Shown here in pieces: positions 1 to 62,253 of a DNA stretch of 64,000 bases. Position numbers and translations under genes: made by a program. This DNA is from a bacterium (GTDB lineage Bacteria; Patescibacteriota; Saccharimonadia; Saccharimonadales; UBA4665). The DNA is taken from the NCBI GenBank assembly GCA_021850365.1, contig JAJZMH010000021.1, positions 7,785-71,784 on the forward strand. The letters run 5' to 3'. The stretch's first letter is position 1. Each line of letters opens with the position of its first letter. The notes beneath the pieces are model-generated. The model saw only the letters and a program-made list of their open reading frames with translations. It was not told the origin of the DNA and did no database searches.

Positions 1-776
1 TAAATCAACACAAAGTTTCATTAAATAAACAAAACTTAATTCCAATTGTTTTGTTTGAGCCTAATTTTTTTAATTTAAACTTAATATCAAACGAACAAAA
101 AAGAAACTTTATAGATAATTTAATAACACAAATCAACCCATCCTATACAAAAACCTTAAATCAATATAAAAAAACCTTAGTTCAAAGAAATAAATTATTG
201 AAAACACCTGTAAAGAACACAGAATTATTTCCTTGGAACATCAAAATTAGTCAATTAGCTCAAGAAATTATCAACAACAGAACAAACACAATAAAAGACA
301 TTAATAAGTTGCTCTCTAAAAAATATACTATTTTTTCAAAAAACTTAGATAAAATAACTCTAAGATACAACTCTCCCATAGATCTAAACAATTATTCTTT
401 AAACCTTTTAGAAAAATTTGAAATAAACATTCACAAAGAAAAAACAATAGGATATACCCTTTTTGGACCCCATAAAGATGATATTGATTTTTTATTTAAC
501 AACCAAATAACCAAAAACTTTCTTTCGCAAGGAGAAAATAGATCAATTGTACTTAGCCTGAAACTAGTTGAGAAAGATATAATAGAAGATAAAACTAATA
601 AGTTACCTATATTTCTGTTTGATGATGTTTTTAGCGAACTTGATGGTAATAGAAGAAGCACAATATTAAAACAAATTAACTCTAATCAAACATTTATAAC
701 AACAACAGAAGTAGATTTAGTGGTTAATAACCTAAATAATGAGTTTAATATTATACCTCTAAACAAAAATCTATAA
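1..776 (+). CDS. recF: DNA replication/repair protein RecF, C-terminal part (5' end lies left of the window)
   Basis: The frame of ORF 51..776 stays open back to base 3, so the TTG at 51 is not the real start. It has the SMC-type signature 'LSQGENRSIVLSLKL' and the Walker B-like 'IFLFDDVFSELD' typical of RecF. Confidence 0.8.
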   Translation, partial: NQHKVSLNKQNLIPIVLFEPNFFNLNLISNEQKRNFIDNLITQINPSYTKTLNQYKKTLVQRNKLLKTPVKNTELFPWNIKISQLAQEIINNRTNTIKDINKLLSKKYTIFSKNLDKITLRYNSPIDLNNYSLNLLEKFEINIHKEKTIGYTLFGPHKDDIDFLFNNQITKNFLSQGENRSIVLSLKLVEKDIIEDKTNKLPIFLFDDVFSELDGNRRSTILKQINSNQTFITTTEVDLVVNNLNNEFNIIPLNKNL

Positions 777-2654
777 TATTGTTCCCTCATTTGGGGCAGT
801 TATGTCTACTTGAGACTGAACTACGGGTTTAGGTGTAGTTGTAATTAAGTCGGTTTCAGTTGGACTAGCAACAACTTGAATGTGAACATGATTTTGACCT
901 GCAAAAAATAAACCTTGTCCTACCGGGAACTGACTAAGTCGTTTCTTTTCTTCAGAAGTTAATTTAAAAACATCTGCTAAAACATCAACAGCTGAGGTGG
1001 ATTGCTTTAATAAAATTTGCATTGATGCATTTGCTACGATAGCTCTACCCATTCTTGAGCCCATAAAGTCTTCTACGTCTTGAGTAATTGTAGTTATACC
1101 AAGATTATACTTCCTTGCCCTTTTAGCTAAACTAAATAAAAAATTAGCCGAATCCTCATATTTCATTAACTGCCATGCTTCATCTACGATTAATATTCTT
1201 CTTTTTTGATCAACTTTAGTTTTGTTCCAAATATAATTTAAAACTATATACATTGCTACAGGTCTTAATTCATCTTCTAGGTCTCTAATATTAAAAACTG
1301 CCAACGGATTATTGATGTTTATATTAGATTGTTGGGAAAAAATACCAGAAAAAGTACCTGTAGTATATTTTCTTAATCTTTGAGCTAATTGCGGGCCGTT
1401 ACCACCCATATGTAGTAAAACATCATACAAATCTGAAATCGTAGGCGGAGGACTTCGATGTGTTAAAGGATCATTTGTAATTCCAGCTTTTGCATATGTT
1501 TCAATTAAGGCAGAATCTAAGTCCGCTTCTTCAGAAGGAGCTAAAACTGGAGCCACAACTGCCTGTTGACCTAAACCAGCAATTTCAGCTTGGGCTCCAC
1601 CCATCATTAGTCTTAACAGCCCATGAAGAGTAATTAAATTACTACGAAGCGCGTTGTCTGCCTCTTCAGAGTCTATGACCTCAGGTAGATCAAATGGATT
1701 AATTCTTGTTGAAGAATTAAGGCTTAACCTAACATAAGCTCCACCTACTGCTTCGCACATTTTTTGGTATTCATTTTCGGGATCAATAATAAATATTTCA
1801 ACCCCAAACATCATACTTCTAAGTGCTTCAAGTTTTACGGTAAATGATTTCCCCGCTCCGGACTTAGCAAATACAACAGAATTTCCGTTCTCAAGCGAAA
1901 ACCTATCAAAAATTACCAACCCAGAATTATGCATGTTTATGCCGTATAAAATTCCATTATCTTGACTAAGATCTGCGCTTGTAAAAGGGAAACTTGTGCT
2001 AAGCGCACCGGTGCTCATGTTTCTTCTTATTTGAAGCATATCTGACATTTGAGGAACGGTGCTATTAAAAGATTGCTCTTGTTGAGAAGTTGCTGGTTTA
2101 GAATAAACTAACATTTGACCTAACATTGACTCAACTTTATGACCAACAAACTCTAACTCTTCAGCACTTTGAGCATATACCGTGAAATATAAGCCAAATC
2201 TGAAAAACTTCTCTTCACCTACCTGAAGCTTATCTCTCATTTCTTCAGCATCTAATATGGCTGCTTGTTTTGCTGGATCTCTTACCCGGCCCTTTTCCGA
2301 ATCTAATTGAATTCCTGCCTCTAGTCTAGAAACTTTTTTCCTAAGATTTTCCAAAACAACCTGACTTTCTACAGGATAGACGTAAATACTAACATCTAAA
2401 ACTTCATCTAAATTAACTAAAGGGCTCATCCAGCCAGTAAAAACATTTCTGGGATAACCGTAAACATAATAAGTCCGAGCAAACCTTGTTCCAATTGTAA
2501 AATACGTGCTGAAATACTCTATTGAACTTGGAGCAATAAAATCTCTTAGAGCAACAATACCTTTTTTAAAAATGTTTTGAGCTTCTTGCTCTTCTTTCAT
2601 TTTTTGAATTTGAGCCGCTGCAACAGGGTCTATAGTAGGATTAAGTTTAGCCAT
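771..2654 (-). CDS. virB4: VirB4/TrbE/PrgJ-family type IV secretion ATPase (C-terminal 627-aa piece of a split homologue)
   Basis: Walker A 'AKSGAGKSFT' and Walker B 'RILIVDEAWQL' are present. The N-terminal 'DFIAPSS...YGYPRNVFTGWM' segment is typical of VirB4-type ATPases. The ATG directly abuts the stop of the upstream ORF in the same frame. Confidence 0.8.
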   Translation of the reverse strand: MAKLNPTIDPVAAAQIQKMKEEQEAQNIFKKGIVALRDFIAPSSIEYFSTYFTIGTRFARTYYVYGYPRNVFTGWMSPLVNLDEVLDVSIYVYPVESQVVLENLRKKVSRLEAGIQLDSEKGRVRDPAKQAAILDAEEMRDKLQVGEEKFFRFGLYFTVYAQSAEELEFVGHKVESMLGQMLVYSKPATSQQEQSFNSTVPQMSDMLQIRRNMSTGALSTSFPFTSADLSQDNGILYGINMHNSGLVIFDRFSLENGNSVVFAKSGAGKSFTVKLEALRSMMFGVEIFIIDPENEYQKMCEAVGGAYVRLSLNSSTRINPFDLPEVIDSEEADNALRSNLITLHGLLRLMMGGAQAEIAGLGQQAVVAPVLAPSEEADLDSALIETYAKAGITNDPLTHRSPPPTISDLYDVLLHMGGNGPQLAQRLRKYTTGTFSGIFSQQSNININNPLAVFNIRDLEDELRPVAMYIVLNYIWNKTKVDQKRRILIVDEAWQLMKYEDSANFLFSLAKRARKYNLGITTITQDVEDFMGSRMGRAIVANASMQILLKQSTSAVDVLADVFKLTSEEKKRLSQFPVGQGLFFAGQNHVHIQVVASPTETDLITTTPKPVVQSQVDITAPNEGTIL

Positions 2655-3506
2655 TTAATTATTTAATCCTCCTTGAAGATGTTCTTGGGGCATAACCCCC
2701 TCTCCTTTCATAACCATATCTGTATTTAAATCATTAAAGTTTTTTAACTGTTGCCTTGTTGCGGTATCAGGATTATACACGTCGTAATATAATTCGATAA
2801 GCTCTTGTGTGTCCAAAGGGAGTCCCTGAACACCACAATCTAGTAATCCACCCAAAACAGCCTGAACTCTATTTCTAAGTTCGGTTTTTGCTCTCTCCAA
2901 TCCTTCTTCATTAATAACAACATGTTCTTCTTTAGAAGTAAACATACCAAGCAGACCCTTTAATAAATTTTTACTATCAGCTAAAGCTTTTTGAACATCT
3001 TCTGTGGGAAAATAAGGTATGACTATATAAAACTTTTTATCCATAATGTTTGTTCTAAGGCTTAAATCATCAATGTAATTAATGTAGTCTTCCATTAATA
3101 AAGCAAGTAACATGTTGTCATGTTCTGTTCTAATTTTGTCTAATTTCTTAATATAACCTTCGAGGTCTATTTTTTGAGTTTTAATAAATATCTGAATTGG
3201 AAAATAGAGAGTGTTTAAAAATCCCTGGTAAGCATATTCAATTGCTTCTTGTTCTTGTTGACTCATTAAATCAAAATTAATACTTTTAACCATAACAATT
3301 GCCCTAAAAGAGCCATCGTTCATAATAACAATACCGTCTCTAACCTCAGCGATTAGTAGAGTATTTTGACTACTGTTTGGATTTGTTTTTTGGGAAGATA
3401 CTGTTTTCTTGGTAGGTTGTGCCGACTGTAGGGTATTAGAAGTTATTCCTTGTGGAGGAACGTTTGAATTTGTTGTTTGGTTTTTAGAACTATTGTTTTG
3501 ATCCAT
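2655..3506 (-). CDS. VirB4 N-terminal-module-like protein (283 aa), T4SS-associated
   Basis: The first ~50 aa are Ser/Asn/Gln-rich. They are followed by 'DGIVIMNDGSFRAIVMVKSINFDLMSQQEQEAIEYAYQGFLNTL' and a C-terminal 'ELIELYYDVYNPD'. From memory these resemble the extreme N-terminus of Gram-positive VirB4 proteins (Tn916 Orf16/TcpF type). The gene is sandwiched in the operon; the similarity has not been checked with an HMM. Confidence 0.45.
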   Translation of the reverse strand: MDQNNSSKNQTTNSNVPPQGITSNTLQSAQPTKKTVSSQKTNPNSSQNTLLIAEVRDGIVIMNDGSFRAIVMVKSINFDLMSQQEQEAIEYAYQGFLNTLYFPIQIFIKTQKIDLEGYIKKLDKIRTEHDNMLLALLMEDYINYIDDLSLRTNIMDKKFYIVIPYFPTEDVQKALADSKNLLKGLLGMFTSKEEHVVINEEGLERAKTELRNRVQAVLGGLLDCGVQGLPLDTQELIELYYDVYNPDTATRQQLKNFNDLNTDMVMKGEGVMPQEHLQGGLNN

Positions 3507-3513
3507 CCCACCA

Positions 3514-4425
3514 TTAATGAAGTTTTATTGATACTTCGCTTTCTTCTTTATTACTTATTTTATTTGCTTCGTGAGAAATTACAGTCACACTATAGTCATT
3601 ATTCCCTGACAAATTAAGTATAGCAGGATTTACATTTTTAGTTGGTGTGTTTTCTTCTTTTTGAGCTACTGGTTTAGGTGCTATGAAAGGTTTATTTTCT
3701 TGAACTATTTTCATGTCTGTTGCTGACTCTATTTTTGTCTTTGGAATTGTTTTTTGCTCATGAGGTTGACTATTTTCCCTTATTTTCTCTAATTTAGCTA
3801 AGATTTTTTCCCGGTGCTCTTTTTCGTTAACAGTGATAAGATCACCCATTTTTTGAGCTAATGGGTTTTGATCAGTGTTTAAAATGTCATTTTCGTTTGT
3901 AGAGTATTCGTCTTTGTCGGTGTTCACCGGAACAGCCATCAATAATCGATCATCCTGTGGAGAGGGATTAATTGCGGTTGGTTGGTTTATGAATGAATTT
4001 TGTTTAACGACCCATCCCCTAGTATCTAGGGTGTTTGCAAGAGCTTGGAGTCTTGATTTAACTTGATCTTGGTTGAGGTTATTTGTTTTTATTTCCTCAA
4101 TTTTTTTAGGGACAGTAATTGTTACCAAGTTTTTAGTTCCCGACTGAGTCCAAATTCTTTTTCTAGGAACTAATAAAAAGCGAATTTTAGCTAGAACCCA
4201 AACTTCCATAGGCTGATCTTTTCCCAAGGGATAGGCGAGTGTACTAAAAAAAAGAACAACTGGTACTGTTATTATATCTAAGAACCACCCATGAACAGAA
4301 ATAAAAATATAGGACACATAAACAAAGAACAAAGCTATTAATAAATAAACGAACTGCCTAAAACTAAAAAGCCAAATTAACTTATCTTCAGCCTCAATAT
4401 CTTGAATTACTTTGTATGTTGCCAT
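3514..4425 (-). CDS. PrgI/VirB3-like T4SS membrane protein with ~200-aa C-terminal extension
   Basis: The N-terminus 'DIEAEDKLIWLFSFRQFVYLLIALFF' plus two hydrophobic helices and 'PMEVWVLAKIRFLLVPRKRIW' matches my recollection of the PrgI/VirB3 pattern. It is the first gene of the minus-strand operon, with a GGTGGG SD for the next gene. Confidence 0.5.
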   Translation of the reverse strand: MATYKVIQDIEAEDKLIWLFSFRQFVYLLIALFFVYVSYIFISVHGWFLDIITVPVVLFFSTLAYPLGKDQPMEVWVLAKIRFLLVPRKRIWTQSGTKNLVTITVPKKIEEIKTNNLNQDQVKSRLQALANTLDTRGWVVKQNSFINQPTAINPSPQDDRLLMAVPVNTDKDEYSTNENDILNTDQNPLAQKMGDLITVNEKEHREKILAKLEKIRENSQPHEQKTIPKTKIESATDMKIVQENKPFIAPKPVAQKEENTPTKNVNPAILNLSGNNDYSVTVISHEANKISNKEESEVSIKLH

Positions 4426-4469
4426 ATCTTTAAATAATTATATCAAACCATAAGCAGATATAAAGGATA

Positions 4470-4952
4470 TTGTTCTTTAAGTTCAAAAACGATAAAATAT
4501 TCTTAGTGAAAACATTGAAATATCAAAGAATATTGTTAAAAAGTTTTATCGTAATCCTTTTTAGTTTTAGTGTGTTGTATTTTTCTAATAGTTATATATT
4601 AAGCCAAAACCCCTCAACCATAAACAACAAACAACTTACACTAACAGCTGCTTGTGGTGGTGGAACCGGGTATTCTTCTGTTACAACTAGCATTGATTTT
4701 GGGTGTAGTGGCAAGGGTAACCCAATACTAGATTTAACCTTTGCTATAATTCGATTTTTAGCAGCAGGGGTTGGCGTAGTTATAATAGCTTCTACAATTT
4801 ATGCCGGCATTCAATATATAATATCAACTGGTGATCCTCAAAAAACAAATGTAGCTATTGGAAGAATCAGGAGTAATATAATTGCCTTAATCCTATTTAT
4901 TTTTACATACGTAATAATTAATTACTTAGTTCCAGGAGGACTTATTCATTAA
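4470..4952 (+). CDS. VirB2/TrbC-like T4SS pilin paralogue 1
   Basis: It has a hydrophobic signal/anchor, then a variable segment with two Cys ('AACGGG...FGCSG'). This is followed by TM1, the loop 'YAGIQYIISTGDPQKTNVAIGRIRSN' and TM2. The start is uncertain: TTG at 4470, or possibly GTG at 4506. Confidence 0.55.
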   Translation: MFFKFKNDKIFLVKTLKYQRILLKSFIVILFSFSVLYFSNSYILSQNPSTINNKQLTLTAACGGGTGYSSVTTSIDFGCSGKGNPILDLTFAIIRFLAAGVGVVIIASTIYAGIQYIISTGDPQKTNVAIGRIRSNIIALILFIFTYVIINYLVPGGLIH

Positions 4953-4953
4953 A

Positions 4954-5325
4954 ATGTTAAGTATATCAAATACACAATTATCACTGACTGCTTGTACGAG
5001 TACTGGTTCTGGTTCTAGTTCTGGTTTTTTTTCTTTTCCAACATGGTATGAGTATTTATGCTCATCATCTAACGGAAACCCTCAAATAACTAACATAAAT
5101 GATATTTGGTTAATTGTTTTAGCAATAATTAACATCTTACTTAGAGTAGCTGCTATGATAGCCGTTTTTTATATTATCTATGGTGGAATTAAATTTATGA
5201 CTTCCCAAGGAAATCCAGAAGAAATAAATAAGGCAAAAAGTACTGTTCTAAGCGCAGTCATTGGCCTGATTATTTGTGTTATAGCTGATGTCTCCATAAG
5301 TTTTATAGCAGGACAAATACAATGA
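4954..5325 (+). CDS. VirB2/TrbC-like T4SS pilin paralogue 2
   Basis: The Ser/Gly-rich variable segment has two Cys. The core is 'IYGGIKFMTSQGNPEEINKAKSTVLSAVIGL' between two hydrophobic helices. It starts 1 nt after paralogue 1. Confidence 0.6.
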   Translation: MLSISNTQLSLTACTSTGSGSSSGFFSFPTWYEYLCSSSNGNPQITNINDIWLIVLAIINILLRVAAMIAVFYIIYGGIKFMTSQGNPEEINKAKSTVLSAVIGLIICVIADVSISFIAGQIQ

Positions 5326-5648
5326 AACTAAAAACTATTTATTTTCCAATAATTTTCAGTGTAGCTTCGGTAACGGTCAACAACTATACATATTCTACGG
5401 GTTTATCAACCACCTCTGCTGGTTCTCAAGAACTACAGAGTATTTTACAAATTGTTTTTGGGATAATTGGCTCAATAGCCGTTTTAATTATTTTAATAGC
5501 AGGATTTAAGTTTATTTCCTCAAGCGGAAATCCTGAAAGTATTGCAAAAGCAAGAGAAACTATAATATATGCCATTATAGGTCTAGTGGTCGCTATGTTA
5601 GCAGAAGTAATTGTTTCCTTTGTTTTGTTTAGTGTTGGAGGTAGTTAA
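5322..5648 (+). CDS. VirB2/TrbC-like T4SS pilin paralogue 3 (no Cys pair)
   Basis: It overlaps paralogue 2 by ATGA. The core is 'IAGFKFISSSGNPESIAKARETIIYAIIGL' between two hydrophobic helices. Confidence 0.6.
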   Translation: MKLKTIYFPIIFSVASVTVNNYTYSTGLSTTSAGSQELQSILQIVFGIIGSIAVLIILIAGFKFISSSGNPESIAKARETIIYAIIGLVVAMLAEVIVSFVLFSVGGS

Positions 5649-5649
5649 T

Positions 5650-6030
5650 ATGAAAAAAAAGAACATATTAGCTTTACTGTGCAGTTTATTTTTAGTTTTT
5701 GGGTTATTTGTGTCTTCTAATGTTAACGCTGCAAATGTTTTAAGCACGCTATGCAATAGCGCTACGGCTCAAAACTCAACCGTTTGTCAAGATACGGGTA
5801 AGGGTCAAACTGCTTCCAATCCTTTTTCTAACACGATCAAGACCATAGTAAATGTTTTTTCAATCGTTTTGGGAATTGCCGCAATCATTATAATCCTTAT
5901 AAGCTCGCTTAGAATGATCGTAGGTGGAGGTGATCCTCAAACAATAAGTTCTTCTCGAAATGCAATACTATATGCCCTAATTGGCTTGATTGTTGCCATA
6001 TCGGCTGGAGTTATAGCTCACATTATTTAA
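5650..6030 (+). CDS. VirB2/TrbC-like T4SS pilin paralogue 4
   Basis: I chose the ATG at 5650 ('MKKKNILALL', a signal peptide ending 'NVNA') because GGAGG lies 9 nt upstream and it avoids overlap with paralogue 3. It has a Cys pair 'LCNS...VCQD' and the core 'LRMIVGGGDPQTISSSRNAILYALIGL'. Confidence 0.6.
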   Translation: MKKKNILALLCSLFLVFGLFVSSNVNAANVLSTLCNSATAQNSTVCQDTGKGQTASNPFSNTIKTIVNVFSIVLGIAAIIIILISSLRMIVGGGDPQTISSSRNAILYALIGLIVAISAGVIAHII

Positions 6031-6041
6031 AGGAGGTAAAA

Positions 6042-6443
6042 ATGAAACAAATAGCAGTTAAATTTTTTTATAGTATTTGTTTATTATTAATAGCCCAGAT
6101 TGTAATATACGGCAGTTTTTCAGTAGTTAGTGCAACTTCACCCAGTCCTAGTGGAGCTGCAACACAGGCCTGTAATGGCTTAAAACAGTTTAATGGAACC
6201 AATGCGACATGCACATCTTCATCCAGTAGTTCTATTATGAGCGTCGTAAGGTATTTAATTGAAGTGTTATCTTATGTTATTGGGGTTGTATCTGTTATTG
6301 TAATAATTTATGCTGGGTTTAGATATGTTGTTTCAGGAGGAGACAGCAATAGTGTTAATAGTGCCAAAAACACTCTTCTTTATGCTGCGGTTGGATTAGC
6401 TATTGCGGTAATAGTTCAAGTTATTGCCCGTATTGTTGTATGA
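6042..6443 (+). CDS. VirB2/TrbC-like T4SS pilin paralogue 5
   Basis: There is an AGGAGG SD and a signal peptide. The Cys pair is 'ACNG...NATCTSSSSSS' and the core is 'IIYAGFRYVVSGGDSNSVNSAKNTLLYAAVGL'. Confidence 0.65.
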   Translation: MKQIAVKFFYSICLLLIAQIVIYGSFSVVSATSPSPSGAATQACNGLKQFNGTNATCTSSSSSSIMSVVRYLIEVLSYVIGVVSVIVIIYAGFRYVVSGGDSNSVNSAKNTLLYAAVGLAIAVIVQVIARIVV

Positions 6444-6477
6444 AACAGATAACTATTTAATTTAAAGCATAAAGCTG

Positions 6478-6505
6478 TTGAAATAAAAACTTACTTTAGT
6501 ATAAT
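6478..6505 (+). promoter_or_regulatory. Sigma70-like promoter for pilin paralogue 6 (TTGAAA-16 nt-TATAAT)
   Basis: TTGAAA lies at 6478-6483 and TATAAT at 6500-6505, in the only sizeable gap within the pilin array. Confidence 0.5.
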
Positions 6506-6518
6506 TATATTTGAATCA

Positions 6519-6977
6519 ATGAAAGGAAAACAAATGATTAAAAAAATTAAAACGTATATGACTTCTTTATTGTTAATTATAAGTATGAGTCTCCCAATAA
6601 CTTCATCGGCGGTAGTTTTTGCGGCGCCTACTTGCACTGGAAATACCAATTTAAACAACAACGCAATAACCAGCAGTATTAATAGTGGAATAAATGACGC
6701 TACTGGACCAACTGGCCAGGGCGGAAACTGTAACCTAGGCCAAGGAATTGGTGCGATTGCTAGTACTGTAATTAATTTATTTTCATTGGTCGTTGGTGTA
6801 GTGTCTGTAATATTTATAATTTATGCCGGTTTTAGATATGTTACCTCAGGTGGTTCATCTGAAAATGTATCCGGAGCTAAAAACACTCTTATATACGCAA
6901 TTGTTGGACTTGTAGTTGTAGCTATTTCGCAGCTTATAGTTCATTATGTTCTAAATAGCGCTTCCTCAGTGGGATAA
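6519..6977 (+). CDS. VirB2/TrbC-like T4SS pilin paralogue 6
   Basis: It has a signal peptide ('...SSAVVFA'), a Cys pair 'PTCTG...GNCNLG' and the core 'IIYAGFRYVTSGGSSENVSGAKNTLIYAIVGL'. The ATG at 6534, preceded by AAAGGAA, is an alternative start. Confidence 0.65.
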   Translation: MKGKQMIKKIKTYMTSLLLIISMSLPITSSAVVFAAPTCTGNTNLNNNAITSSINSGINDATGPTGQGGNCNLGQGIGAIASTVINLFSLVVGVVSVIFIIYAGFRYVTSGGSSENVSGAKNTLIYAIVGLVVVAISQLIVHYVLNSASSVG

Positions 6978-7003: not shown

Positions 7004-8251
7004 TTATTTTAAGAAACCAACATAACTTAGTATTAAATAGAAATTGAAAATACTGGACAACAGAAACAAACTCTTCATTCCAGAAGACAGTTTTTTGTTA
7101 TATTTTTTATATAATTGCAAGAATATAACAAATATTATAGGTAAGAAATCTAGACTATATCTGTAACCAAATTGATTTGCGCCGTCACCATAATATACTA
7201 AAAGCATCAAGAGGCTTATCAGTGAACTAAGTAATAACAGTCTATGTTCTCTCGTATAAGAAGACCATTTTCTAGTAAACAAATAGAGTAAAAAGGGGGA
7301 AGTAAAAAATATCCCCATACCTAAATTGTTATTGATAATGTATGGAAACTTTAAGCTCCAAGAAGAAGCAGATGCCAATACTGTACTTGGTCCTCGTAAT
7401 AAAAAATTATATAAATTAGTAGGAATATGACTTAACGAAAGAAGGCCCATATTTCTTGCTAACAACGATGAAGTAGAGATTAGCTGATATGAGTTCCCAT
7501 TATTTAAAGGATTTCCAAATCGTAGATAGTTGTACGCACCCAGTAATAAAACCGCTATAAGTCCAAAAATTCCAATCTTAAATAAATTGATTAATTTTTG
7601 TTTTGAACTTATTTTTTCTAATAAAATTTGGGCAATAAAAAATAAAATTATTACAGAAGCAGGAATTCTGGTAAGAAACAACATTCCGCAATATGCTCCA
7701 AGTAATAACCACCTTTTCTTATTAAAATACTCATAAAGGGCAAGAAATAAGATTAAGGTTGAAACTATCTGAGCAAATAACCAACCACTGGAAACTGTAT
7801 TAATCCCCGCATAAACTGTTGCTAGTAAAAACGCGAAAGACAGTATAATACTATCTCTTTTACTATATCTGAACTTAACGGCTAATTTATAGATTATATA
7901 AAAAGTAATTAGAACCAATATCCATTTCATGTAACCCTGATAGAAAAATATATGAAATAAATTAAAGAAAGCAACGAAGGGCATTAAAATAATTGCCGGG
8001 AAAAACCCATCATCCCAATACTGTTTCCCATGATAAATAACAGGATCTTGACCAATTCCACCGATTGAACTTAAAAAATAGGTGTGACCGTGAACGAAAC
8101 TGTTTGCCAACATTGAAAATTGTTGACTACCTTCACCAACAAAACCAGCTGCCAACAAAAAAATTAACAAGAATCCAAACACCAACATATAAGGCATTTC
8201 GTTTACGTCAGACCAAGATATATAAAACAGTTTTTTTAGATCCTCTAACAT
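7004..8251 (-). CDS. GT-C-fold polytopic membrane glycosyltransferase (ArnT/PMT/GT87-like)
   Basis: The 415-aa protein has about 10 or more hydrophobic helices. The first-loop motif 'DPVIYHGKQYWDDGFFPAIILMPF' resembles lipid-linked-sugar glycosyltransferases. The call rests on pattern only. Confidence 0.4.
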   Translation of the reverse strand: MLEDLKKLFYISWSDVNEMPYMLVFGFLLIFLLAAGFVGEGSQQFSMLANSFVHGHTYFLSSIGGIGQDPVIYHGKQYWDDGFFPAIILMPFVAFFNLFHIFFYQGYMKWILVLITFYIIYKLAVKFRYSKRDSIILSFAFLLATVYAGINTVSSGWLFAQIVSTLILFLALYEYFNKKRWLLLGAYCGMLFLTRIPASVIILFFIAQILLEKISSKQKLINLFKIGIFGLIAVLLLGAYNYLRFGNPLNNGNSYQLISTSSLLARNMGLLSLSHIPTNLYNFLLRGPSTVLASASSWSLKFPYIINNNLGMGIFFTSPFLLYLFTRKWSSYTREHRLLLLSSLISLLMLLVYYGDGANQFGYRYSLDFLPIIFVIFLQLYKKYNKKLSSGMKSLFLLSSIFNFYLILSYVGFLK

Positions 8252-9488: not shown

Positions 9489-9576
9489 GGAAGGGTGTCC
9501 GAGTGGTCGATGGAGCTGGTCTTGAAAACCAGTGTGGGGAAACTCACCGTGGGTTCGAATCCCACCCCTTCCGCCA
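9489..9576 (+). tRNA. tRNA-Ser (anticodon UGA), CCA encoded
   Basis: The acceptor stem is GGAAGGG/CCCTTCC. The anticodon arm is CTGGT-CTTGAAA-ACCAG. It has a long variable arm and the T-loop GGTTCGAATCC. Confidence 0.9.
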
Positions 9577-9582
9577 GATTAA

Positions 9583-9675
9583 GGAGAGGTACCCAAGTGG
9601 TTGAAGGGGATGGTTTGCTAAATCATTAGGGGGGCGTGAGCTCCCGCGAGGGTTCGAATCCCTCCCTCTCCGCCA
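9583..9675 (+). tRNA. tRNA-Ser (anticodon GCU), CCA encoded
   Basis: The acceptor stem is GGAGAGG/CCTCTCC. The anticodon arm is ATGGT-TTGCTAA-ATCAT. It has a long GC-rich variable arm and the T-loop GGTTCGAATCC. Confidence 0.9.
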
Positions 9676-9774
9676 AATTTTTATGTTCTCTTTAATTAAG
9701 AAACCATTATTAGCTAAACGGTGTTGCAGTGTTGATAAATAAATTGAAGTATAATATATACTAAAAAATATTTG

Positions 9775-9864
9775 GGAGAGATGCAGGAGTGGTTGAACTG
9801 GACGGTCTCGAAAACCGTTGTACGATTTTTCGTATCGTGGGTTCGAATCCCACTCTCTCCGCCA
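9775..9864 (+). tRNA. tRNA-Ser (anticodon CGA), CCA encoded
   Basis: The acceptor stem is GGAGAGA/TCTCTCC. The anticodon arm is ACGGT-CTCGAAA-ACCGT. It has a long variable arm and the T-loop GGTTCGAATCC. Confidence 0.9.
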
Positions 9865-10140
9865 CACATTAAATATTTTATGGAAAATATGTTAGCAAAT
9901 AGTTAGAAAGTACAAAAGTAAATATTTTTGAAGACAAGAGCACTACATTAATAGAATATACGTTTTGCTGAATCTAAAAAGATTGATGAATGCTTTAATG
10001 CTAGTTAGAGGATAATTTAACACAAAATGATCAAACCGGAACTCCACTAATAAAACAGCATAATCATACTAACAATGATTTGTTAGGTCTTAATTAATTG
10101 AGTGCCATTAAAGATGAAAATAAAGTATAATTATAGATGA

Positions 10141-10217
10141 GCACCCGTAGCTCAGTTGGATAGAGTGTTGGCTTGCGGAGCCAAAGGTCACAGGTTCGAA
10201 TCCTGTCGGGTGTACCA
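10141..10217 (+). tRNA. tRNA-Arg (anticodon GCG as read), CCA encoded
   Basis: The 5' half 'GCACCCGTAGCTCAGTTGGATAGAG' is typical of bacterial tRNA-Arg. The anticodon arm is TTGGC-TTGCGGA-GCCAA. Acceptor pair 1:72 is G:U. Confidence 0.85.
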
Positions 10218-10379
10218 AACAATAGTATATCTTTTAATATGGCTTTAGATCTGCTTTGATAGATTATAGTTTACGTTAATACTTTATTTATTATATTTGG
10301 TTTATGTTTAGCTTGTGATATTCCAGTAATTTAAAATTTATGTTAAAATCAATCACTGTAAGAATTAAGGAACCAAGAG

Positions 10380-10622
10380 ATGACAGATGAGAATAAGAAT
10401 TACAAAGAAATAGCAGATAGTTTTAAATGGCTACAAAATAAAGGCGGATCAGGTCCGAATTCCACAAACAATCAAGCATCACCATATGCGAAAAGTCAAG
10501 AATTACGAAAAGAGCATGAAAAACAGATTGAAGTGACTTTAGTTCCAAACAATGAAGAGAGAGTACCCAATTTTTTTAAAAAAATTGGCCATACAGTATT
10601 ATCAATATTCAAAAAACAATGA
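10380..10622 (+). CDS. Hypothetical 80-aa protein
   Basis: The ORF has an ATGA overlap to the next gene, suggesting co-translation. No motif was recognised. Confidence 0.3.
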   Translation: MTDENKNYKEIADSFKWLQNKGGSGPNSTNNQASPYAKSQELRKEHEKQIEVTLVPNNEERVPNFFKKIGHTVLSIFKKQ

Positions 10623-11254
10623 ATCTTCACAGAGCTCAAAACCTACCAGATTGGAAATCTGAGTCTTTTGAAAGTTTGAATAATTTTCAAAAAATTGCTG
10701 ATGCCACAAACGGGGTCTTAACCCCAGCTAACATGGTTACAGGTTTAGGTCTATATCTTGTCTATAAGGGTGCTCAAGACTTAAATAATAATAAAATATT
10801 GTCTGGAACACTAAAAATTGGCCTCGGAAGAGCTATGGATTATTTCGACGGAATCGTGGCAGACAAAACCAAAACCAAAAGTCCATTAGGTGAAGCATTT
10901 GATGCAACTGCAGATAAAATCGGGGTATTGTTAGTAGGTCTTCCTTTATACAAGAATAATCTTATATCTAGGAATAAATTAAATTTGGTGTTTGCTCAAA
11001 ATGCAATTAACACCGTATATACTATGAAGGCTAAAAATGAAGGGAAAGAAATACATTCTAGTAAGTATGGGAAATTAGCAACAGCAGCCCAGTGGATATT
11101 TATTGGATCTAGTCTATTAGAAAAGGCTACTAAAGATGCCAAATTTCACACTCCAGGAGATATCTTGAATAAAATTTCTAACATTAGTTTTTTGACTTTC
11201 CTTGGATTGGGGTCTATAGCATCAGCGAAAATTATTCAAGATTCAAGCAAATAA
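10619..11254 (+). CDS. CDP-alcohol phosphatidyltransferase family protein
   Basis: 'DYFDGIVADKTKTKSPLGEAFDATADK' fits the family motif D-x2-DG-x2-A(R)-x8-G-x3-D-x3-D, with D in place of R. The protein has several hydrophobic helices. Confidence 0.6.
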   Translation: MNLHRAQNLPDWKSESFESLNNFQKIADATNGVLTPANMVTGLGLYLVYKGAQDLNNNKILSGTLKIGLGRAMDYFDGIVADKTKTKSPLGEAFDATADKIGVLLVGLPLYKNNLISRNKLNLVFAQNAINTVYTMKAKNEGKEIHSSKYGKLATAAQWIFIGSSLLEKATKDAKFHTPGDILNKISNISFLTFLGLGSIASAKIIQDSSK

Positions 11255-11289
11255 TTCCAATCAATTTAAAAATCTAGTATCATAAGGCT

Positions 11290-12168
11290 ATGACAAATGG
11301 TGGAGTAATCGGTCCTGAGTTTAAATTAGGTCAAAGAATTCAATATCTAAGAAAATCGAAAGGATTTACTCAGCAAGGTTTATGTTATAAGGCTCATTTA
11401 AGCTACTCAACCTTAGCTAAAATAGAAAGGGGCGCAATTAAGTCCCCTTCTATATTTACGATTCAATCGATAGCTGAGGCCTTAAATTTAAGCATAGACG
11501 ATTTTGTCGATAAAGACAGAGTTACCGAAAACAAAAATTTTGCTATAAATAGAAATTTAAAAACATCTAAAGATGGAATTAAGTTCGTCTATTTTGATAT
11601 AAATGGATGCTTGGTTCGATTTTATCAAAAGGCTTTCGTAAAAATAGCCAAGGATTACAATTTAGGGTTAGATAAAATAGAGGCTTCTTTCTGGAATTTT
11701 AACGATAAAGTCAACAGAGGAAATATGACAATAGAGCAATTTAATAAAAAATTTGCTTCTAAATTAGGAGTAGATTCTATTGACTGGGTTAAATATTATT
11801 TAAACGAAGTAGAACCAGTTCCTGGAATGGAAAATCTTTTACGAAAAATTTACAAGAACTATTTAATGGGATTGTTATCTAATACGATGCCAGGACTAAT
11901 TGAAAAATTAATACAAACCTCTAAAATACCCAATCTTCCATATGATTCAATTGTTGATTCCTCAGTCGTTAAAAGCGTTAAGCCAGAAAATAAAATTTTT
12001 GAGAAAGCGCGCGATCTATCTGGCGTCAAAGCCAATGAAATAATTTTAATTGATGATACTAGAAATAATTTAGTCGCTTCTGGAAGGCTTCATTTTCATA
12101 CTCTTTGGTTTGATTATTCTAGGCCCAAAGATTCTATCTCTGAAATTGAAAAACTCTTAGGACTTTGA
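11290..12168 (+). CDS. XRE-family HTH domain fused to a HAD-superfamily hydrolase domain
   Basis: The N-terminus 'LGQRIQYLRKSKGFTQQGLCYKAHLSYSTLAKIERG' is an XRE HTH. The C-terminus has HAD motif I 'VYFDINGCLV' and the late motif 'ILIDDTRNN'. Confidence 0.6.
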   Translation: MTNGGVIGPEFKLGQRIQYLRKSKGFTQQGLCYKAHLSYSTLAKIERGAIKSPSIFTIQSIAEALNLSIDDFVDKDRVTENKNFAINRNLKTSKDGIKFVYFDINGCLVRFYQKAFVKIAKDYNLGLDKIEASFWNFNDKVNRGNMTIEQFNKKFASKLGVDSIDWVKYYLNEVEPVPGMENLLRKIYKNYLMGLLSNTMPGLIEKLIQTSKIPNLPYDSIVDSSVVKSVKPENKIFEKARDLSGVKANEIILIDDTRNNLVASGRLHFHTLWFDYSRPKDSISEIEKLLGL

Positions 12169-15905: not shown

Positions 15906-17216
15906 ATGGGTTTTAGAAATCTAGTTAAATTATTCATTCCTAAAAAACTTTTTAAGAAAATAGAACCAACCGGTCATTTGCTTGAAGCTGTTTTTTTTAA
16001 CTTAATCAATGGTTTTCCGTTAAGAGGACTCAAGGTGATTGGTGTTACGGGTACAAACGGTAAAACAACAACGTCCTTTATGATCCACAATATTTTACAA
16101 AAAGCTGGATATAGTTCCGGACTAATGACCACAATTGCTTACGGTGTAAATGAGCAGATCAAGCCTCAAATGCACCATATGACTACTGTTTCTGTTCCCC
16201 AGTTAATAAAAAGGGTTAAAGCAATGAAAAAGACCGGTATTGATTATCTAATTTTAGAAACAACTAGCCATGCGTTAGCCCAGAATAGAGTTTGGGGTGT
16301 TCCCTACTCTATAGCTGTTTTAACTAATATGACTCATGAGCATATTTCTTATCATGGTAGCTTTCAAAAATATGTAGAAGCTAAATTAAAGCTTTTTAGA
16401 ATGACCAATAAAAATAAAGCTGGACTTAAGTTTGGAGTAATCAACAGAGATGATCCTGTTTGCGACAAATTTGCAAATAGTATAACCAATAAATTGACTT
16501 ATGGACTTAAAAAAGGTGATTTAGTTGCCAAAAATGTCCAACTAGGTTCCGATGAATCTAGTTTCGAGGTTCAATATCTAGGAAGAAAGATCAAAATTAA
16601 CTGCAAACTAGCAGGTAGTTTTAACGTTTATAACTCATTAGCTGCTATTGGGGTAGCAGCAGTTTTGAAAATAGATTCAGATTCTGTAATCTCAGGTATC
16701 AATGAGCTTACTTATGTAGAAGGAAGAATGAATAAAATTGAACTGGGTCAGGATTTTAAAGTGATTGTAGATTATGCCCATACACCAGATAGTTATCAGA
16801 AGTTGTTTGAGGATATTCATTCTTTGAGTAAGAATAGGATTATTACTGTATTTGGTTCCCTTGGCGGGGGTGATTTAAATAAACGCCCAGAGCAGGGAAG
16901 AATAGCTGCAAAATATTCAGATGTTGTTATTCTTTGCGAAGAAGATGATAGAAAAGAAAATGGACAAAACATAATTAATGATATTTCCAAGGGGTGCGAA
17001 GAGCAGGGTATGAGCTTAAATAAGAATTTGTTTCATATTCATGACAGAGCAGAAGCGATTAAATACGGAATAAGTATTGCCCAAAAAGGAGACCTTGTTC
17101 TCGTATTAGGTAAAGGACATGAAAAAACTATTGAACATGCTGACGGTGAACATCCTTGGAGTGATATCGAACAAACAAAATTAGCTATTACGGATAGAAT
17201 TAAGCGTACTATTTAA
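15906..17216 (+). CDS. murE: Mur ligase, MurE-type (UDP-MurNAc-L-Ala-D-Glu--diamino acid ligase)
   Basis: It has 'IGVTGTNGKTTT', 'VDYAHTPDS' and 'LGKGHE'. The position of the meso-DAP-specifying DNPR motif reads 'EEDDR'. At 436 aa it is shorter than typical. Confidence 0.7.
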   Translation: MGFRNLVKLFIPKKLFKKIEPTGHLLEAVFFNLINGFPLRGLKVIGVTGTNGKTTTSFMIHNILQKAGYSSGLMTTIAYGVNEQIKPQMHHMTTVSVPQLIKRVKAMKKTGIDYLILETTSHALAQNRVWGVPYSIAVLTNMTHEHISYHGSFQKYVEAKLKLFRMTNKNKAGLKFGVINRDDPVCDKFANSITNKLTYGLKKGDLVAKNVQLGSDESSFEVQYLGRKIKINCKLAGSFNVYNSLAAIGVAAVLKIDSDSVISGINELTYVEGRMNKIELGQDFKVIVDYAHTPDSYQKLFEDIHSLSKNRIITVFGSLGGGDLNKRPEQGRIAAKYSDVVILCEEDDRKENGQNIINDISKGCEEQGMSLNKNLFHIHDRAEAIKYGISIAQKGDLVLVLGKGHEKTIEHADGEHPWSDIEQTKLAITDRIKRTI

Positions 17217-18096
17217 GCGTTAAACAACAGCAACGAATTGATCCGCCACCTTTTTTTAACTCATTTAACTCTAGTTCAATTACTTTAAATCCATTATTTA
17301 TTAAATCATTTTTAAATTTAATAGTTCCTTTGTTTATAATCACAGACTGACCAGTTGATACTAAATTAAGGGCATAATTTTTTATACATTCTTTGTTAGT
17401 TACTTTAATTTTTCGAAAATTTGTTAAGGAGTTAATTATTTTTTTACTTTTTCTCGTGAAACGGGTAGGACAGTAGGCAATTATCGGCAAACTCTCTGTT
17501 GTTGAAGGTTTTAAAATTGCTAAGGCTAGGTCTAAATCATAACTAAAGCTATCGATTAAACCTGTAACCTTATTAATTTTTTTAGGACCTATCTTGAACC
17601 AACGTAGAGGTTTGGTTTGAAGACTAATAATTGTTTTATTTTTAAAAATCTCTTTTAAACACTGATGTGCATTTAAGGATGTACGATATGGAGATTGACA
17701 AAATAGATAGTCATCAACCGTCAAACAGTCTCCCTGACCACTAAAATATTGAACGATATCTGGTAAATCAATAATCTCTAGATTTAAATCTTCAAAAATT
17801 GAACGAGCATATTGCTCTTCGTTTTTTCTAGTATTTGGTAATTTTGATGGAACAACCTTGCCATCAATTACTGTTCCCCAGTTAGCAACATAAATTCCGT
17901 CCTGACATTTTTCTGGAGGTGAAACCTGAATAACATCTATACCAATATCTTTAAGAGTGCTAACCAGTAAATTGTGCTCTTTAATGGCCATAGAAGAATC
18001 AATGCTTTGAGCTGAACTCATAAGTGGGTTAATTAGATATTCATTATTAAAATAGTTAGCTCCTGAAACTAATATGCTTTTATTTATTAAATTCAT
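17209..18096 (-). CDS. Guanidino-group-modifying enzyme superfamily protein (amidinotransferase/DDAH/arginine deiminase-like)
   Basis: The C-terminal 'KKGGGSIRCCCLTL' resembles the catalytic-Cys motif of this superfamily. At 295 aa it is too short for canonical ArcA. Confidence 0.45.
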   Translation of the reverse strand: MNLINKSILVSGANYFNNEYLINPLMSSAQSIDSSMAIKEHNLLVSTLKDIGIDVIQVSPPEKCQDGIYVANWGTVIDGKVVPSKLPNTRKNEEQYARSIFEDLNLEIIDLPDIVQYFSGQGDCLTVDDYLFCQSPYRTSLNAHQCLKEIFKNKTIISLQTKPLRWFKIGPKKINKVTGLIDSFSYDLDLALAILKPSTTESLPIIAYCPTRFTRKSKKIINSLTNFRKIKVTNKECIKNYALNLVSTGQSVIINKGTIKFKNDLINNGFKVIELELNELKKGGGSIRCCCLTLK

Positions 18097-39214: not shown

Positions 39215-39245
39215 CTAGCTGACATTTTTTAATAGTATAAAAAAG

Positions 39246-39275
39246 TTGTACATTTCTGAAATTATATGTTAAAAT
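39246..39275 (+). promoter_or_regulatory. Candidate promoter of rpsO (TTGTAC-18 nt incl. TGt-TAAAAT)
   Basis: TTGTAC lies at 39246-39251 and the extended -10 TGtTAAAAT at 39267-39275. The rpsO ATG is only 11 nt downstream of the -10. Confidence 0.4.
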
Positions 39276-39286
39276 TATGCACAACA

Positions 39287-39553: not shown

Positions 39554-39726
39554 CGTTTGTATACTATTAGGCTTGATATATCGAGCTTGATAGCCTACCA
39601 ACGTAAAAATGTTTAGGATAGGAAATCTATTAATTAAGATGGGTAATTTCTGAGTTAAAGAAGCAGCTATACATCGAAAGTATATCTGAACTTTAATGCA
39701 GAAATATCCAAAGAAAGGAAAAGTTA

Positions 39727-42626: not shown

Positions 42627-42639
42627 AGGAAAATGTTAA

Positions 42640-56539: not shown

Positions 56540-56544
56540 TAAAT

Positions 56545-57464: not shown

Positions 57465-57484
57465 CAAATTAAAATAAATAGGTA

Positions 57485-59272: not shown

Positions 59273-59319
59273 ATGATATTATTATACATAAGCAAGATAA
59301 ATAAAGGTGGGGAATAACA

Positions 59320-60387: not shown

Positions 60388-60388
60388 A

Positions 60389-61633: not shown

Positions 61634-61635
61634 AT

Positions 61636-62245: not shown

Positions 62246-62253
62246 TAATTTTT

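Follow-up and report, generated by a model that had tools for sequence, protein, structure and literature searches.

Known Saccharimonadia systems and the present locus

TM7x's type IV secretion system (T4SS) was described in 2020 (McLean et al., PMC7427843). The T4SS of Southlakia epibionticum ML1 was found to be essential by Tn-seq, as were nearly all genes of SEML1_0003-0022 (Wang et al. 2023, PMC10633639). A phylum-wide T4SS survey appeared in 2025 (Quinonero-Coronel et al., PMC12102498). Pilin arrays, the lack of DNA-transfer genes, the near-origin position, and essentiality have all been published (PMC7427843, PMC10633639, PMC12102498, PMC12857230). The function of the Patescibacteria T4SS has been termed "completely unknown" (PMC11665869), and no pilus has been demonstrated for any such T4SS.

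A 64-kb stretch of DNA (the window) was analyzed. Its T4SS is the already described chromosomal, oriC-proximal system of Patescibacteria/Saccharimonadia rather than a new one. The ML1 T4SS (SEML1_0006-0019, PMC10633639) was very like that of the window. Both follow dnaA-dnaN-recF and consist of a virB4-trsD-prgI operon divergent from six PF18895 pilin genes, with hsp20 and tRNA-Ser beyond. Neither cluster contains a relaxase or a coupling protein, and the synteny extended over SEML1_0003-0022. The ML1 cluster also holds a lysozyme-like protein (0006), large proteins (0007 and 0011), an NTF2-like protein (0012), and a VirB6-like protein (0013). From this synteny block, the genes for the VirB6-like protein, the ~900-aa protein, the lysozyme/CHAP protein, and the small exported proteins were absent in the window. 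Unlike in ML1, the VirB6-like, ~860-aa, CHAP, and 219-aa genes of the window organism lay in a separate operon on another contig. Counterparts of ML1 0011 and 0012 were not identified in the window organism. The window also differed from ML1 by an extra GT-C-like gene between the pilins and hsp20.

Synteny across relatives, named as a check in the preliminary description, held, with the same locus found in 80 species-level Saccharimonadia loci. The recF-hsp20 placement next to dnaA was shared by nearly all of about 80 species. The compact form of the locus was rare: recF abutted virB4 in only 3 of 64 loci (recF side), and PrgI lay within 100 bp of the pilins in only 2 of 52. The compact-form loci and the window formed one monophyletic low-GC clade. 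About seven genes of other species' loci were missing from the window locus.

Gene content of the window locus

All nine ORFs reported between 771 and 6977 in the preliminary description were present and intact, and dN was far below dS for every gene. The features are listed in Table 1.

Table 1. Features of the T4SS locus and its neighbor (positions in the window).
Feature	Position	Strand	Basis
VirB4-type T4SS ATPase, 627 aa, without usual N-terminal domain	771..2654	-	NF045971, PF19044, PDB 4AG5
TrsD-like, 283 aa, free-standing homologue of VirB4 N-terminal domain	2655..3506	-	NCBIfam TrsD, PF26593
PrgI/VirB3-like membrane protein, 303 aa; two N-terminal TM helices, then long polar tail	3514..4425	-	PF12666
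prgI/pilin 1 divergent intergenic region, 44 bp	4426..4469	.	sequence
T4SS pilin paralogue 1, position-1 class; signal peptide, Cys pair, helical hairpin	4470..4952	+	PF18895
T4SS pilin paralogue 2, position-2 class; no classical signal peptide; FPxWYxYL motif conserved	4954..5325	+	PF18895
T4SS pilin paralogue 3, shortest, 108 aa	5322..5648	+	PF18895, TrbC PF04956
T4SS pilin paralogue 4, position 4/5/6 subfamily	5650..6030	+	PF18895
T4SS pilin paralogue 5, position 4/5/6 subfamily	6042..6443	+	PF18895
T4SS pilin paralogue 6, best-conserved pilin	6519..6977	+	PF18895
Polytopic membrane protein, 415 aa, putative GT-C-type glycosyltransferase	7004..8251	-	NF047440, sub-cut-off

The minus-strand operon had been assigned to a PrgI/VirB3-like protein, a protein like the VirB4 N-terminal module, and a VirB4 with Walker motifs, and the profile and structure matches supported all three identities. 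VirB4 matched NF045971 (347 bits against a cut-off of 325), PF19044 (E 8.8e-28), and PDB 4AG5 (E 4.8e-47), with the Walker A motif AKSGAGKS and the Walker B motif ILIVDE. Since the NF045971 match spanned only model positions 176-734 of 752, the N-terminal domain was taken to be absent. The TrsD-like protein matched NCBIfam TrsD (E 5.5e-8), aligned to the N-terminal positions of three VirB4 models, and had a precomputed Pfam match to PF26593 (TraC-like). Its stop codon abutted the virB4 start codon, and the two genes were neighbors in almost every locus whose length allowed this to be seen. PrgI matched PF12666 over residues 5-91 (35 bits, gathering cut-off 27), with TM-like segments at residues 16-38 and 40-60. 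Saccharimonadia VirB4 proteins were 80-93% identical to that of the window.

The six plus-strand genes, described earlier as VirB2-like pilins, all matched PF18895 (T4SS_pilin). Five were above the gathering cut-off of 26.6 (pilin 2, 40.2 bits; pilin 3, 58.5; pilin 4, 43.4; pilin 5, 30.9; pilin 6, 42.3), and pilin 1 was just under it at 25.7. TrbC/VirB2 matches were weak and sub-threshold; that of pilin 3 to TrbC had E 5.3e-5. The pilin profile search reached no solved VirB2/TraA pilin, and a Foldseek search gave no specific match. The assignment as pilins thus relies on PF18895 and the sub-threshold TrbC matches and is putative to that extent. The conserved part was a hairpin of two hydrophobic helices linked through a short polar loop, as proposed before. 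A signal peptide in each protein, also proposed, was not found: clear Sec signal peptides were present in four of the six, that of pilin 3 was weak, and no hydrophobic signal peptide was found for pilin 2 in the alignment of any species examined. Most had a Cys pair in the exposed N-terminal region. Pilin 6 was 64-74% identical within the clade, and its AF2 model was a hairpin (helices 77-109 and 114-150, pLDDT 70-79). It is a candidate major pilin.

Best cross-species matches of the window pilins fell at their own position in 37 of 37 cases for pilin 1, 37 of 37 for pilin 2, and 29 of 37 for pilin 3. In cross-species comparisons of the pilins as a whole, the same position was matched in 1378 of 1406 cases at position 1, 1397 of 1406 at position 2, and 1269 of 1406 at position 6. 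Pilins 4, 5, and 6 formed one subfamily. These comparisons identify the six pilins as ancient orthologues that mostly keep to their own positions, which is evidence against a recent amplification and a small addition to the literature.

The 44-bp divergent gap given in the preliminary description holds if TTG 4470 is the start codon of pilin 1. This start was supported by AAGGA at 4462-4466 and by N-terminal conservation with L006. The longest ORF of pilin 4 began at 5611, but ATG 5650 is the likely start (126 aa in public gene calls); for pilin 6, public gene calls favored 6534. The gap held a promoter-like TTTATA-16-TATAAT on the minus strand (4464->4437), and the best promoter-like site of the region was at 6478-6505, just 5' of pilin 6; sites of this class were not enriched over shuffles. 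The 415-aa protein had about nine predicted TM-like segments and was rejected as a VirB6; its match to NF047440 had E 6.5e-12, below the cut-off. Outside the low-GC clade, its gene was present in two relatives only. This putative glycosyltransferase gene is regarded as a neighbor only, and T4SS membership is not claimed.

The module was flanked by core genes, as previously noted, with recF/dnaN/dnaA on one side (dnaA three genes away) and hsp20/tRNAs on the other, and its GC content matched that of the flanks. Pfam and NCBIfam scans covered nearly all ORFs of at least about 120 aa in the 64 kb. In agreement with the earlier reading, these scans detected no relaxase, VirD4, VirB6, VirB8, VirB1, integrase, or transposase; the other ORFs were housekeeping genes and a type IV pilus cluster. 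Profiles built specially for the absent T4SS families (VirB6-like, ~900-aa, lysozyme, and small downstream proteins) gave no match in the window or the 10 kb to its left. A conjugation set immediately left of the window, which would have pointed to an integrative conjugative element (ICE), was not there. That side carried recF-dnaN-dnaA-rpmH-rnpA-yidC, and the 10 kb held housekeeping genes only. No relaxase, T4CP, or integrase was found within about 74 kb, and no mobile-element repeats at the module.

A second operon in the same MAG

In the MAG to which the window belongs (GCA_027427475.1), contig DAICDH010000023.1 carried an operon encoding a VirB6-like protein (1067 aa), an 864-aa protein, a CHAP hydrolase (451 aa), and a 219-aa protein. 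The operon was also present in sample ERZ27237515, and the exact window VirB4 occurred in the same MAG and sample. Compared with in-locus genes of other species, the VirB6-like protein scored 460 bits, the ~860-aa protein 96 bits, and the 219-aa protein 76 bits. The CHAP gene was above its Pfam cut-off, and a TrbL match had E 7e-4. Sister species showed the same two-locus arrangement, and sister MAG GCA_027427595.1 carried both loci. The operon's genomic context was conserved across the clade, and its genes were 62-79% identical to those of sister species, the same range as the window's genes. For two sister species, the longest contigs of VirB4 and of the VirB6-like protein were identical in size (566,997 bp and 218,855 bp), and the longest contig of a third VirB6-like protein (267,953 bp) had the exact size of L009's VirB4-bearing contig. 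The two loci are linked by MAG binning, by their co-occurrence in a sample, and by agreement in divergence level and contig size, at the level of a MAG and not of a closed genome. The four genes have been relocated, not lost.

Interpretation and comparison with known systems

The region is, with a probability of about 82%, the origin-proximal half of a conserved chromosomal Saccharimonadia T4SS whose remainder lies in the second operon and which builds a host-contact filament or conduit. It is a domesticated chromosomal T4SS of an ultra-small, epibiotic-type bacterium, descended from monoderm conjugation machinery of the MPF-FATA type. With no relaxase or T4CP within about 74 kb, it is probably not a DNA-conjugation device. 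VirB4, TrsD as the separately encoded homologue of its N-domain, and PrgI as a VirB3-like membrane anchor would form the energising unit, from which the six VirB2-like pilins, divergent in sequence from one another, are transcribed in the opposite direction. In the low-GC clade, the rest of the apparatus would have moved to the second operon, supplying a VirB6-like polytopic channel, a CHAP/glucosaminidase wall hydrolase in the role of VirB1, a ~219-aa exported protein, and the ~860-aa protein. The pilins may enter the membrane as helical hairpins, four via clear Sec signal peptides, and be extracted and polymerized by VirB4/TrsD/PrgI on the VirB6-like platform while the hydrolase opens the wall locally. 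The product would be a filament or conduit where the host bacterium is contacted, supporting epibiotic growth through import of host material or export of effectors. We infer pilus formation, the substrate, and the direction of transport; essentiality would extend to these genes by analogy with the ML1 orthologues in the literature.

The preliminary description was thus upheld in its gene identities and in a domesticated, non-ICE T4SS, but not in its minimal set. A lineage that has given up VirB6, VirB8, and VirB1 and makes its filament from three component types agrees with the negative custom-profile search, but is very unlikely. An intact operon orthologous to the in-locus genes of others is present in the same MAG and sample, with conserved clade context and matching divergence, so the "VirB2/3/4-only" reading fails; the apparent minimalism arose because only one window was viewed. 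Absence of about seven genes from the locus could also mark a decaying, non-functional remnant, but nine intact ORFs under dN far below dS, Walker motifs, 86-93% VirB4 identity across the clade, and the intact missing genes elsewhere make this highly improbable. Next to negligible is a fragment of an ICE or integrated plasmid. VirB4, TrsD, and PrgI do have homologues among the conjugation proteins that Gram-positive plasmids and ICEs encode, but the position is the same in nearly all species, GC matches the flanks, no transfer or integration genes or element repeats were found, and VirB4 is more conserved within the low-GC clade than the neighboring housekeeping recF (41-71%).

It is unlikely, though less so, that the T4SS secretes the six small proteins as effector or toxin subunits exported by Sec, as McLean et al. 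2020 (PMC7427843) proposed for TM7x by analogy with ptx/ptl. The signal peptides, the Cys pair, and the lack of a specific VirB2-fold confirmation in the structural search fit this proposal. Against it, each of the six matches the T4SS_pilin model and, weakly, TrbC/VirB2, their hairpin is of a kind usual in membrane-inserted pilins but not in soluble toxins, identity to pertussis toxin S1 was 11%, and later structure-based annotation names them pilins.

The survey (PMC12102498) and TM7x (PMC7427843) share with the window the VirB4, TrsD, PrgI/VirB3, VirB6, and VirB2-like repertoire without relaxase, pilin-gene arrays (2-11 genes, members about 25% identical to one another), and dnaA/dnaN proximity. 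The survey took components as within 20 CDS of virB4, whereas the window system is split over two distant loci; it read pilin variability as possible host-range versatility, whereas the window pilins are ancient position-specific orthologues. The MPF-FATA conjugative T4SSs (pGO1 Trs and pCF10 Prg) share homologous VirB4, TrsD, PrgI, a VirB6-like polytopic protein, a CHAP/glucosaminidase wall hydrolase, and the monoderm envelope. They differ in being plasmid- or ICE-borne and in having a relaxase, a coupling protein, and adhesins but no VirB2 pilins. Bordetella Ptl, Helicobacter ComB, and archaeal Ced/Ted are relaxase-free T4SS derivatives, some without a coupling protein. They differ from the window system in lineage, envelope type, and component set, and their roles in protein export or DNA import are precedents for a non-conjugative role.

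The virB4-trsD-prgI operon and the pilin array

All nine ORFs of the T4SS module were present where the preliminary description had placed them (table). Its reading of the minus-strand trio as a PrgI/VirB3-like protein, a protein resembling the N-terminal module of VirB4, and a VirB4 with intact Walker motifs was borne out. The PrgI-family protein matched PF12666 with 35 bits (gathering cut-off 27) and had two predicted N-terminal TM helices. The TrsD-like protein (283 aa) matched NCBIfam TrsD (E 5.5e-8) and also N-terminal positions of three VirB4 models; its precomputed Pfam match was PF26593 TraC-like. VirB4 scored 347 bits against NF045971 (curated cut-off 325). Since the match was confined to model positions 176-734, the protein is a VirB4 without the N-domain. 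Its P-loop motifs were AKSGAGKS (Walker A) and ILIVDE (Walker B), and it matched PDB 4AG5, the solved VirB4 C-terminal domain, with E 4.8e-47. VirB4 was 80-93% identical to proteins from hundreds of Candidatus Saccharibacteria/Saccharimonadales MAGs. The order virB4, TrsD-like gene, PrgI/VirB3-like gene was common to nearly all loci long enough to display it.

Coordinates of the features discussed (window positions unless another locus is named)
Feature	Position	Strand	Remark
recF	51-776		adjacent to virB4
virB4-trsD-prgI operon	4425 down to 771	minus	three proteins
virB4	771-2654	minus	627 aa
Pilin 1	4470-4952	plus	
Pilin 2	4954-5325	plus	
Pilin 3	5322-5648	plus	
Pilin 4	5650-6030	plus	start probably 5650, from gene calls
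Pilin 5	6042-6443	plus	
Pilin 6	6519-6977	plus	start probably 6534, from gene calls
Polytopic membrane protein	7004-8251	minus	415 aa; between pilin 6 and hsp20
tRNA cluster	9489-10217		three tRNA-Ser (anticodons tga, gct, cga), one tRNA-Arg
107-aa ORF	9544-9867		opposite strand to overlapping tRNA cluster; probably spurious
HTH-HAD hydrolase	11290-12168		unusual N-terminal HTH_3 fusion
Amidinotransferase-superfamily protein	17209-18096	minus	295 aa; DDAH/arginine deiminase-like matches
RNA-turnover run	36933-44625		529-aa DHH/NrnA-like protein (weak match), TruB, PNPase, RNase J
UDG-family gene	42039-42626		between PNPase and RNase J
FtsK-like protein	44721-46952		
Type IV pilus cluster	54811-63950		complete: pilM, pilN, pilO, PilB-type ATPase, PilT-type ATPase, pilC, prepilin peptidase
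Type IV prepilin	61718-62245		GFxxxE-type N-terminus
Further pilin-like gene	63108-63950		
Small resolvase and large serine recombinase	L003 256-2547 (ENA ERZ27237515 k141_93915)		corresponds to window ~9500-12000
Rearranged T4SS locus	L178 6024-22607 (ENA ERZ27237454 k141_928508)		
HTH-MurA/EPSP-synthase-family protein	L161 17600-19126		unusual N-terminal HTH_3 fusion; next to second T4SS operon
VirB6-like protein P0334	L187 (L187/L188)		1067 aa; 460 bits, nearly whole in-locus VirB6-like profile
864-aa protein	L187		96 bits
CHAP hydrolase	L187		451 aa; PF05257 above its cut-off
219-aa protein	L187		76 bits

All six plus-strand genes matched PF18895 T4SS_pilin, five of them above the gathering cut-off, and the proposed VirB2-type pilin family was upheld on this profile. 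PF04956 TrbC/VirB2 was weaker, sub-threshold for all six (best 23.8 bits; cut-off 27.9). Each pilin had been described as a signal peptide plus two hydrophobic helices. The two-helix hairpin with a short loop was found in 6/6, but a classical leader peptide was clear only at positions 1, 4, 5, and 6, weak at 3, and absent at 2. The position-2 pilins had no hydrophobic leader in any species examined; the window protein and its orthologues had a short "LSLTAC"-like start, a polar N-terminus, a Cys pair, and a conserved FPxWYxYL motif. The Cys pair was conserved in the exposed N-terminal region of most pilin classes.

The start of pilin 1 at TTG 4470 was backed by an AAGGA motif just upstream and by an N-terminus conserved with a relative. 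The 44-bp gap reported between the divergent units is right provided that pilin 1 begins there. Pilin 6 was the best conserved of the six, and the best promoter-like site of the region directly preceded it; promoter-like sites were fewer overall than in shuffles (26 vs 32), so single sites are suggestive only. An AF2 model of pilin 6, built on an alignment of the six paralogues only (mean pLDDT 58.6), gave the expected helical hairpin with helices 77-109 and 114-150 at pLDDT 70-79. Foldseek of this model against the PDB gave no match at E <= 1e-3, the hits being generic helical hairpins, and the pilin sequence profile had no specific match among PDB sequences.

Orthology of the pilins was compared across 38 six-pilin loci. 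Among the matches listed, the best cross-species match fell on the same position in 1378/1406 cases for position 1, 1397/1406 for position 2, 1161/1406 for position 3, and 1269/1406 for position 6; positions 4-6 formed one related subgroup. The window's six pilins were position-orthologous to the arrays of 37 other species among these matches, with identities of 40-49% to same-position orthologues and 23-42% between paralogues. Pilin arrays bounded by hsp20 had six genes in 27/33 loci among the matches listed. The array is therefore ancient and ordered.

The 415-aa membrane protein lies beside pilins that are Ser/Thr-rich. It matched weakly a putative membrane glycosyltransferase family (NF047440) and had no PDB sequence match, and it was rejected as a VirB6 candidate. 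Its gene was confined to the low-GC clade and two relatives with a full locus (L113, L118); in the latter it lay beyond hsp20.

Genomic surroundings and the compact form

Nearly all window ORFs of about 120 aa or more were scanned with Pfam and NCBIfam. They comprised the type IV pilus cluster and housekeeping genes, including recF, hsp20, ValRS, TsaD, Mur ligase, GroEL, ArgRS, MscL, DnaG, RpoD, PolA, Fpg, PNPase, RNase J, FtsK with a gamma domain, SSB, and EF-P. The scans found no relaxase, VirD4, VirB6, VirB8, VirB1, integrase, or transposase among these ORFs of the 64 kb, in agreement with the preliminary description. Its account of core-gene flanks (recF, hsp20, tRNAs) was also confirmed. 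The sole FtsK-like protein found had the domain set of a chromosomal FtsK (4TM, alpha, and gamma). Four tRNA genes and no further Rfam match were detected, and GC was uniform at about 0.31.

Several other features of the window were observed. Besides the T4SS, the envelope machine reported essential in Saccharibacteria is the type IV pilus. The RNA-turnover run may bear on the idea, put forward recently, that host RNA serves Patescibacteria as food, and the 295-aa protein could be related to the arginine catabolism reported important in Saccharibacteria. In L003, a contig of another strain with identical VirB4, a small resolvase and a 551-aa large serine recombinase replaced the tRNA/CDP-alcohol transferase side beyond a 174-aa gene. 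The replacement points to a strain-specific element integrated at the tRNA-Ser cluster. ParE/YafQ-type toxin genes occupied the same place in the sister-species locus L006.

ORFs were labelled in at least 80 species-level loci, scanning one genome per species; the window's own species was not among the matches listed. Among those matches, 2.9-7.4 kb of genes separated PrgI from the pilins in 50/52 loci with both, including a VirB6-like (PF19590 TrbL_3) protein of about 600-1300 aa. Only two of the 52 (L009 and L010) had a gap of <=100 bp. The virB4-recF spacing was 4.7-8.7 kb in 61 of the 64 listed loci with both genes, and this interval encoded a ~900-1300-aa protein, a lysozyme/CHAP hydrolase, and a small protein; recF abutted virB4 only in L009, L010, and L029. 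Neither the window nor the compact-clade loci gave any match to profiles built from the VirB6-like, large-protein/lysozyme, and small-protein families that other species encode within the locus. L009, L010, L029, the window, and L006, whose VirB4 is 93% identical to the window's, all had low GC (0.31-0.37) and grouped as a single clade in a tree of VirB4+TrsD+PrgI, so that the compaction is a derived state that arose once.

Amino-acid identity within this low-GC clade was 86-93% for VirB4, 71-84% for TrsD, and 41-71% for the adjacent recF. Every ORF of the compact-clade locus was intact, and dN was far below dS. Because dS was saturated, the dN/dS ratios were unreliable; use was made only of the amino-acid identities and of dN being much smaller than dS. 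Judged by these sequence measures, the T4SS locus is maintained within the clade.

A third arrangement was observed in L178, from a different Saccharimonadia organism of the same sample, whose VirB4 was only 80% identical to the window's. PrgI abutted the pilins, and a VirB6-like gene (1128 aa) lay downstream of virB4, followed by two transposase genes (DDE_Tnp_1, rve), a large protein, lysozyme, and recF. The rearrangement in L178 is IS-associated and arose independently.

A second operon in the same MAG

A metagenome scan with the VirB6-like alignment was followed by searches with the protein found and its closest relative. On low-GC metagenome contigs, a VirB6-like gene lay away from virB4 and headed an operon that continued with a ~800-900-aa protein, a hydrolase, and a small protein, with recA, RNase Y, P-type ATPase, YbjQ, MurA, and GlyA as neighbours. 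The hydrolase in L161 was CHAP/glucosaminidase by Pfam. The second-operon protein P0183 was found in GCA_027427595.1, the MAG that also holds compact locus L006. The longest contig was 566,997 bp for both P0183 and the VirB4 protein P0002, and 218,855 bp for both P0161 and P0003; that of P0242 (267,953 bp) was exactly as long as L009's contig.

The window organism's operon was represented by P0334 (P0145 cluster), which GCA_027427475.1 carries on contig DAICDH010000023.1 and which also occurs in ENA sample ERZ27237515. The window's exact VirB4 was in the same MAG and the same sample. P0334 matched Pfam TrbL at E 7e-4, under the cut-off, and its orthologues carried PF19590 TrbL_3. Identity between the operon proteins and their sister-species counterparts was 62-79%, the same range as the window's genes against L006, and operon GC was 0.33. 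P0130, from the same sample, was also considered as the window organism's VirB6-like protein and rejected, since it comes from another Saccharimonadia organism. The VirB6-like component is outside the window, on another contig of the same MAG. The genes missing from the window moved elsewhere in the genome rather than being lost, a link that rests on binning and co-occurrence.

Readings of the module and comparison with known systems

McLean et al. 2020 described a T4SS region that TM7x shares with other Saccharibacteria; it encodes VirB4 and VirB6 and, in an array, 4-6 small proteins with Sec signals (PMC7427843). Wang et al. 2023 applied Tn-seq to Southlakia epibionticum ML1 and found SEML1_0006-0019, a cluster with predicted pilins among its genes, essential for epibiotic growth; they noted that relaxase and coupling proteins were absent (PMC10633639). 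The ML1 supplementary gene data list the pilins as individually essential. The phylum survey of Quinonero-Coronel et al. 2025 reported a monophyletic VirB4 clade related to MPF-FATA, and widespread TrsD, PrgI/VirB3, VirB6, and VirB2-like proteins (PMC12102498). In that survey, pilin genes made up 441 arrays with 2-11 members each, relaxases were nearly absent, and dnaA/dnaN often lay close by; the assemblies used here were not listed in its supplements. A 2025 review called the Patescibacteria T4SS unique among monoderms because it is essential and potentially piliated (PMC12857230). Its function has been called completely unknown, with effector export and import of host nucleic acids as hypotheses (PMC11665869). 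A 2026 preprint on another Patescibacteria lineage showed by cryo-EM tubular structures at the parasite-host interface, which may be T4SS pili.

The module is best read as a T4SS of monoderm ancestry that is non-conjugative. On sequence grounds, it belongs to the chromosomal T4SS of Patescibacteria/Saccharimonadia, combining a clade VirB4, TrsD/PrgI, a pilin array, a VirB6-like protein, a position near the origin, and no relaxase. An ICE or plasmid T4SS would be expected to have a linked relaxase and T4CP, as well as an integrase or attachment sites, and its presence would vary among relatives. Public contigs with identical VirB4 continued leftward into recF, dnaN, dnaA, rpmH, rnpA, yidC, jag, and sugar-metabolism genes, so no conjugation set lies immediately left. 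No relaxase, T4CP, or integrase was found in about 74 kb (the window plus 10 kb leftward), the module lay three genes from dnaA, and its position was fixed in nearly all of the at least 80 species. The earlier view that this is not an ICE fragment therefore stands. Its proposal of a VirB2/3/4-only machine does not, as the VirB6-like, 864-aa, CHAP, and 219-aa genes are in the second operon of the same MAG.

In the non-conjugative reading, VirB4/TrsD/PrgI would energise assembly of the VirB2-like pilins on a VirB6-like platform, the CHAP hydrolase would make the wall opening, and the resulting filament or conduit would serve epibiotic contact. The sequence data establish gene identities, the division between two loci, and the conservation; pilus formation, substrate, and transport direction are what we infer here, and essentiality for epibiotic growth may be extended from the ML1 orthologues. 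The ancient, largely position-specific pilins and their individual essentiality in ML1 favour non-redundant roles, such as major/minor subunits or a heteromeric structure, over host-range or antigenic variation. It is a speculative and rather unlikely extension that the split reflects two sub-modules, an origin-kept motor-plus-filament and a channel-plus-wall-hydrolase, with six position-specific pilins forming a heteromeric conduit that imports host macromolecules and does not export DNA.

The Saccharibacteria T4SS is an important problem, being essential for epibiotic growth. Two points go beyond the papers cited here: a T4SS apparatus can be divided between two distant loci, and the six pilins are ancient, largely position-specific paralogues. 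Both are modest and leave the picture of how the system works unchanged. Surveys restricted to 20 genes around virB4 will undercount components such as VirB6.

The synteny proposed as a check was found: the window matched ML1 in gene order, and the same module occurred in the loci of at least 80 Saccharimonadia species. In ML1, recF is followed by SEML1_0004-0007 (including a PEGA exported protein, a lysozyme-like protein, and a 1113-aa protein), virB4 (0008), a 293-aa gene (0009), prgI (0010), a 998-aa gene (0011), an NTF2-like gene (0012), a VirB6-like gene of 1088 aa (0013), six PF18895 pilins (0014-0019), hsp20, and tRNA-Ser. The window differed in having no counterparts in place of 0004-0007 and 0011-0013. 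The T4SS is already published in other Saccharibacteria, and the window holds its orthologue in an unstudied low-GC clade.
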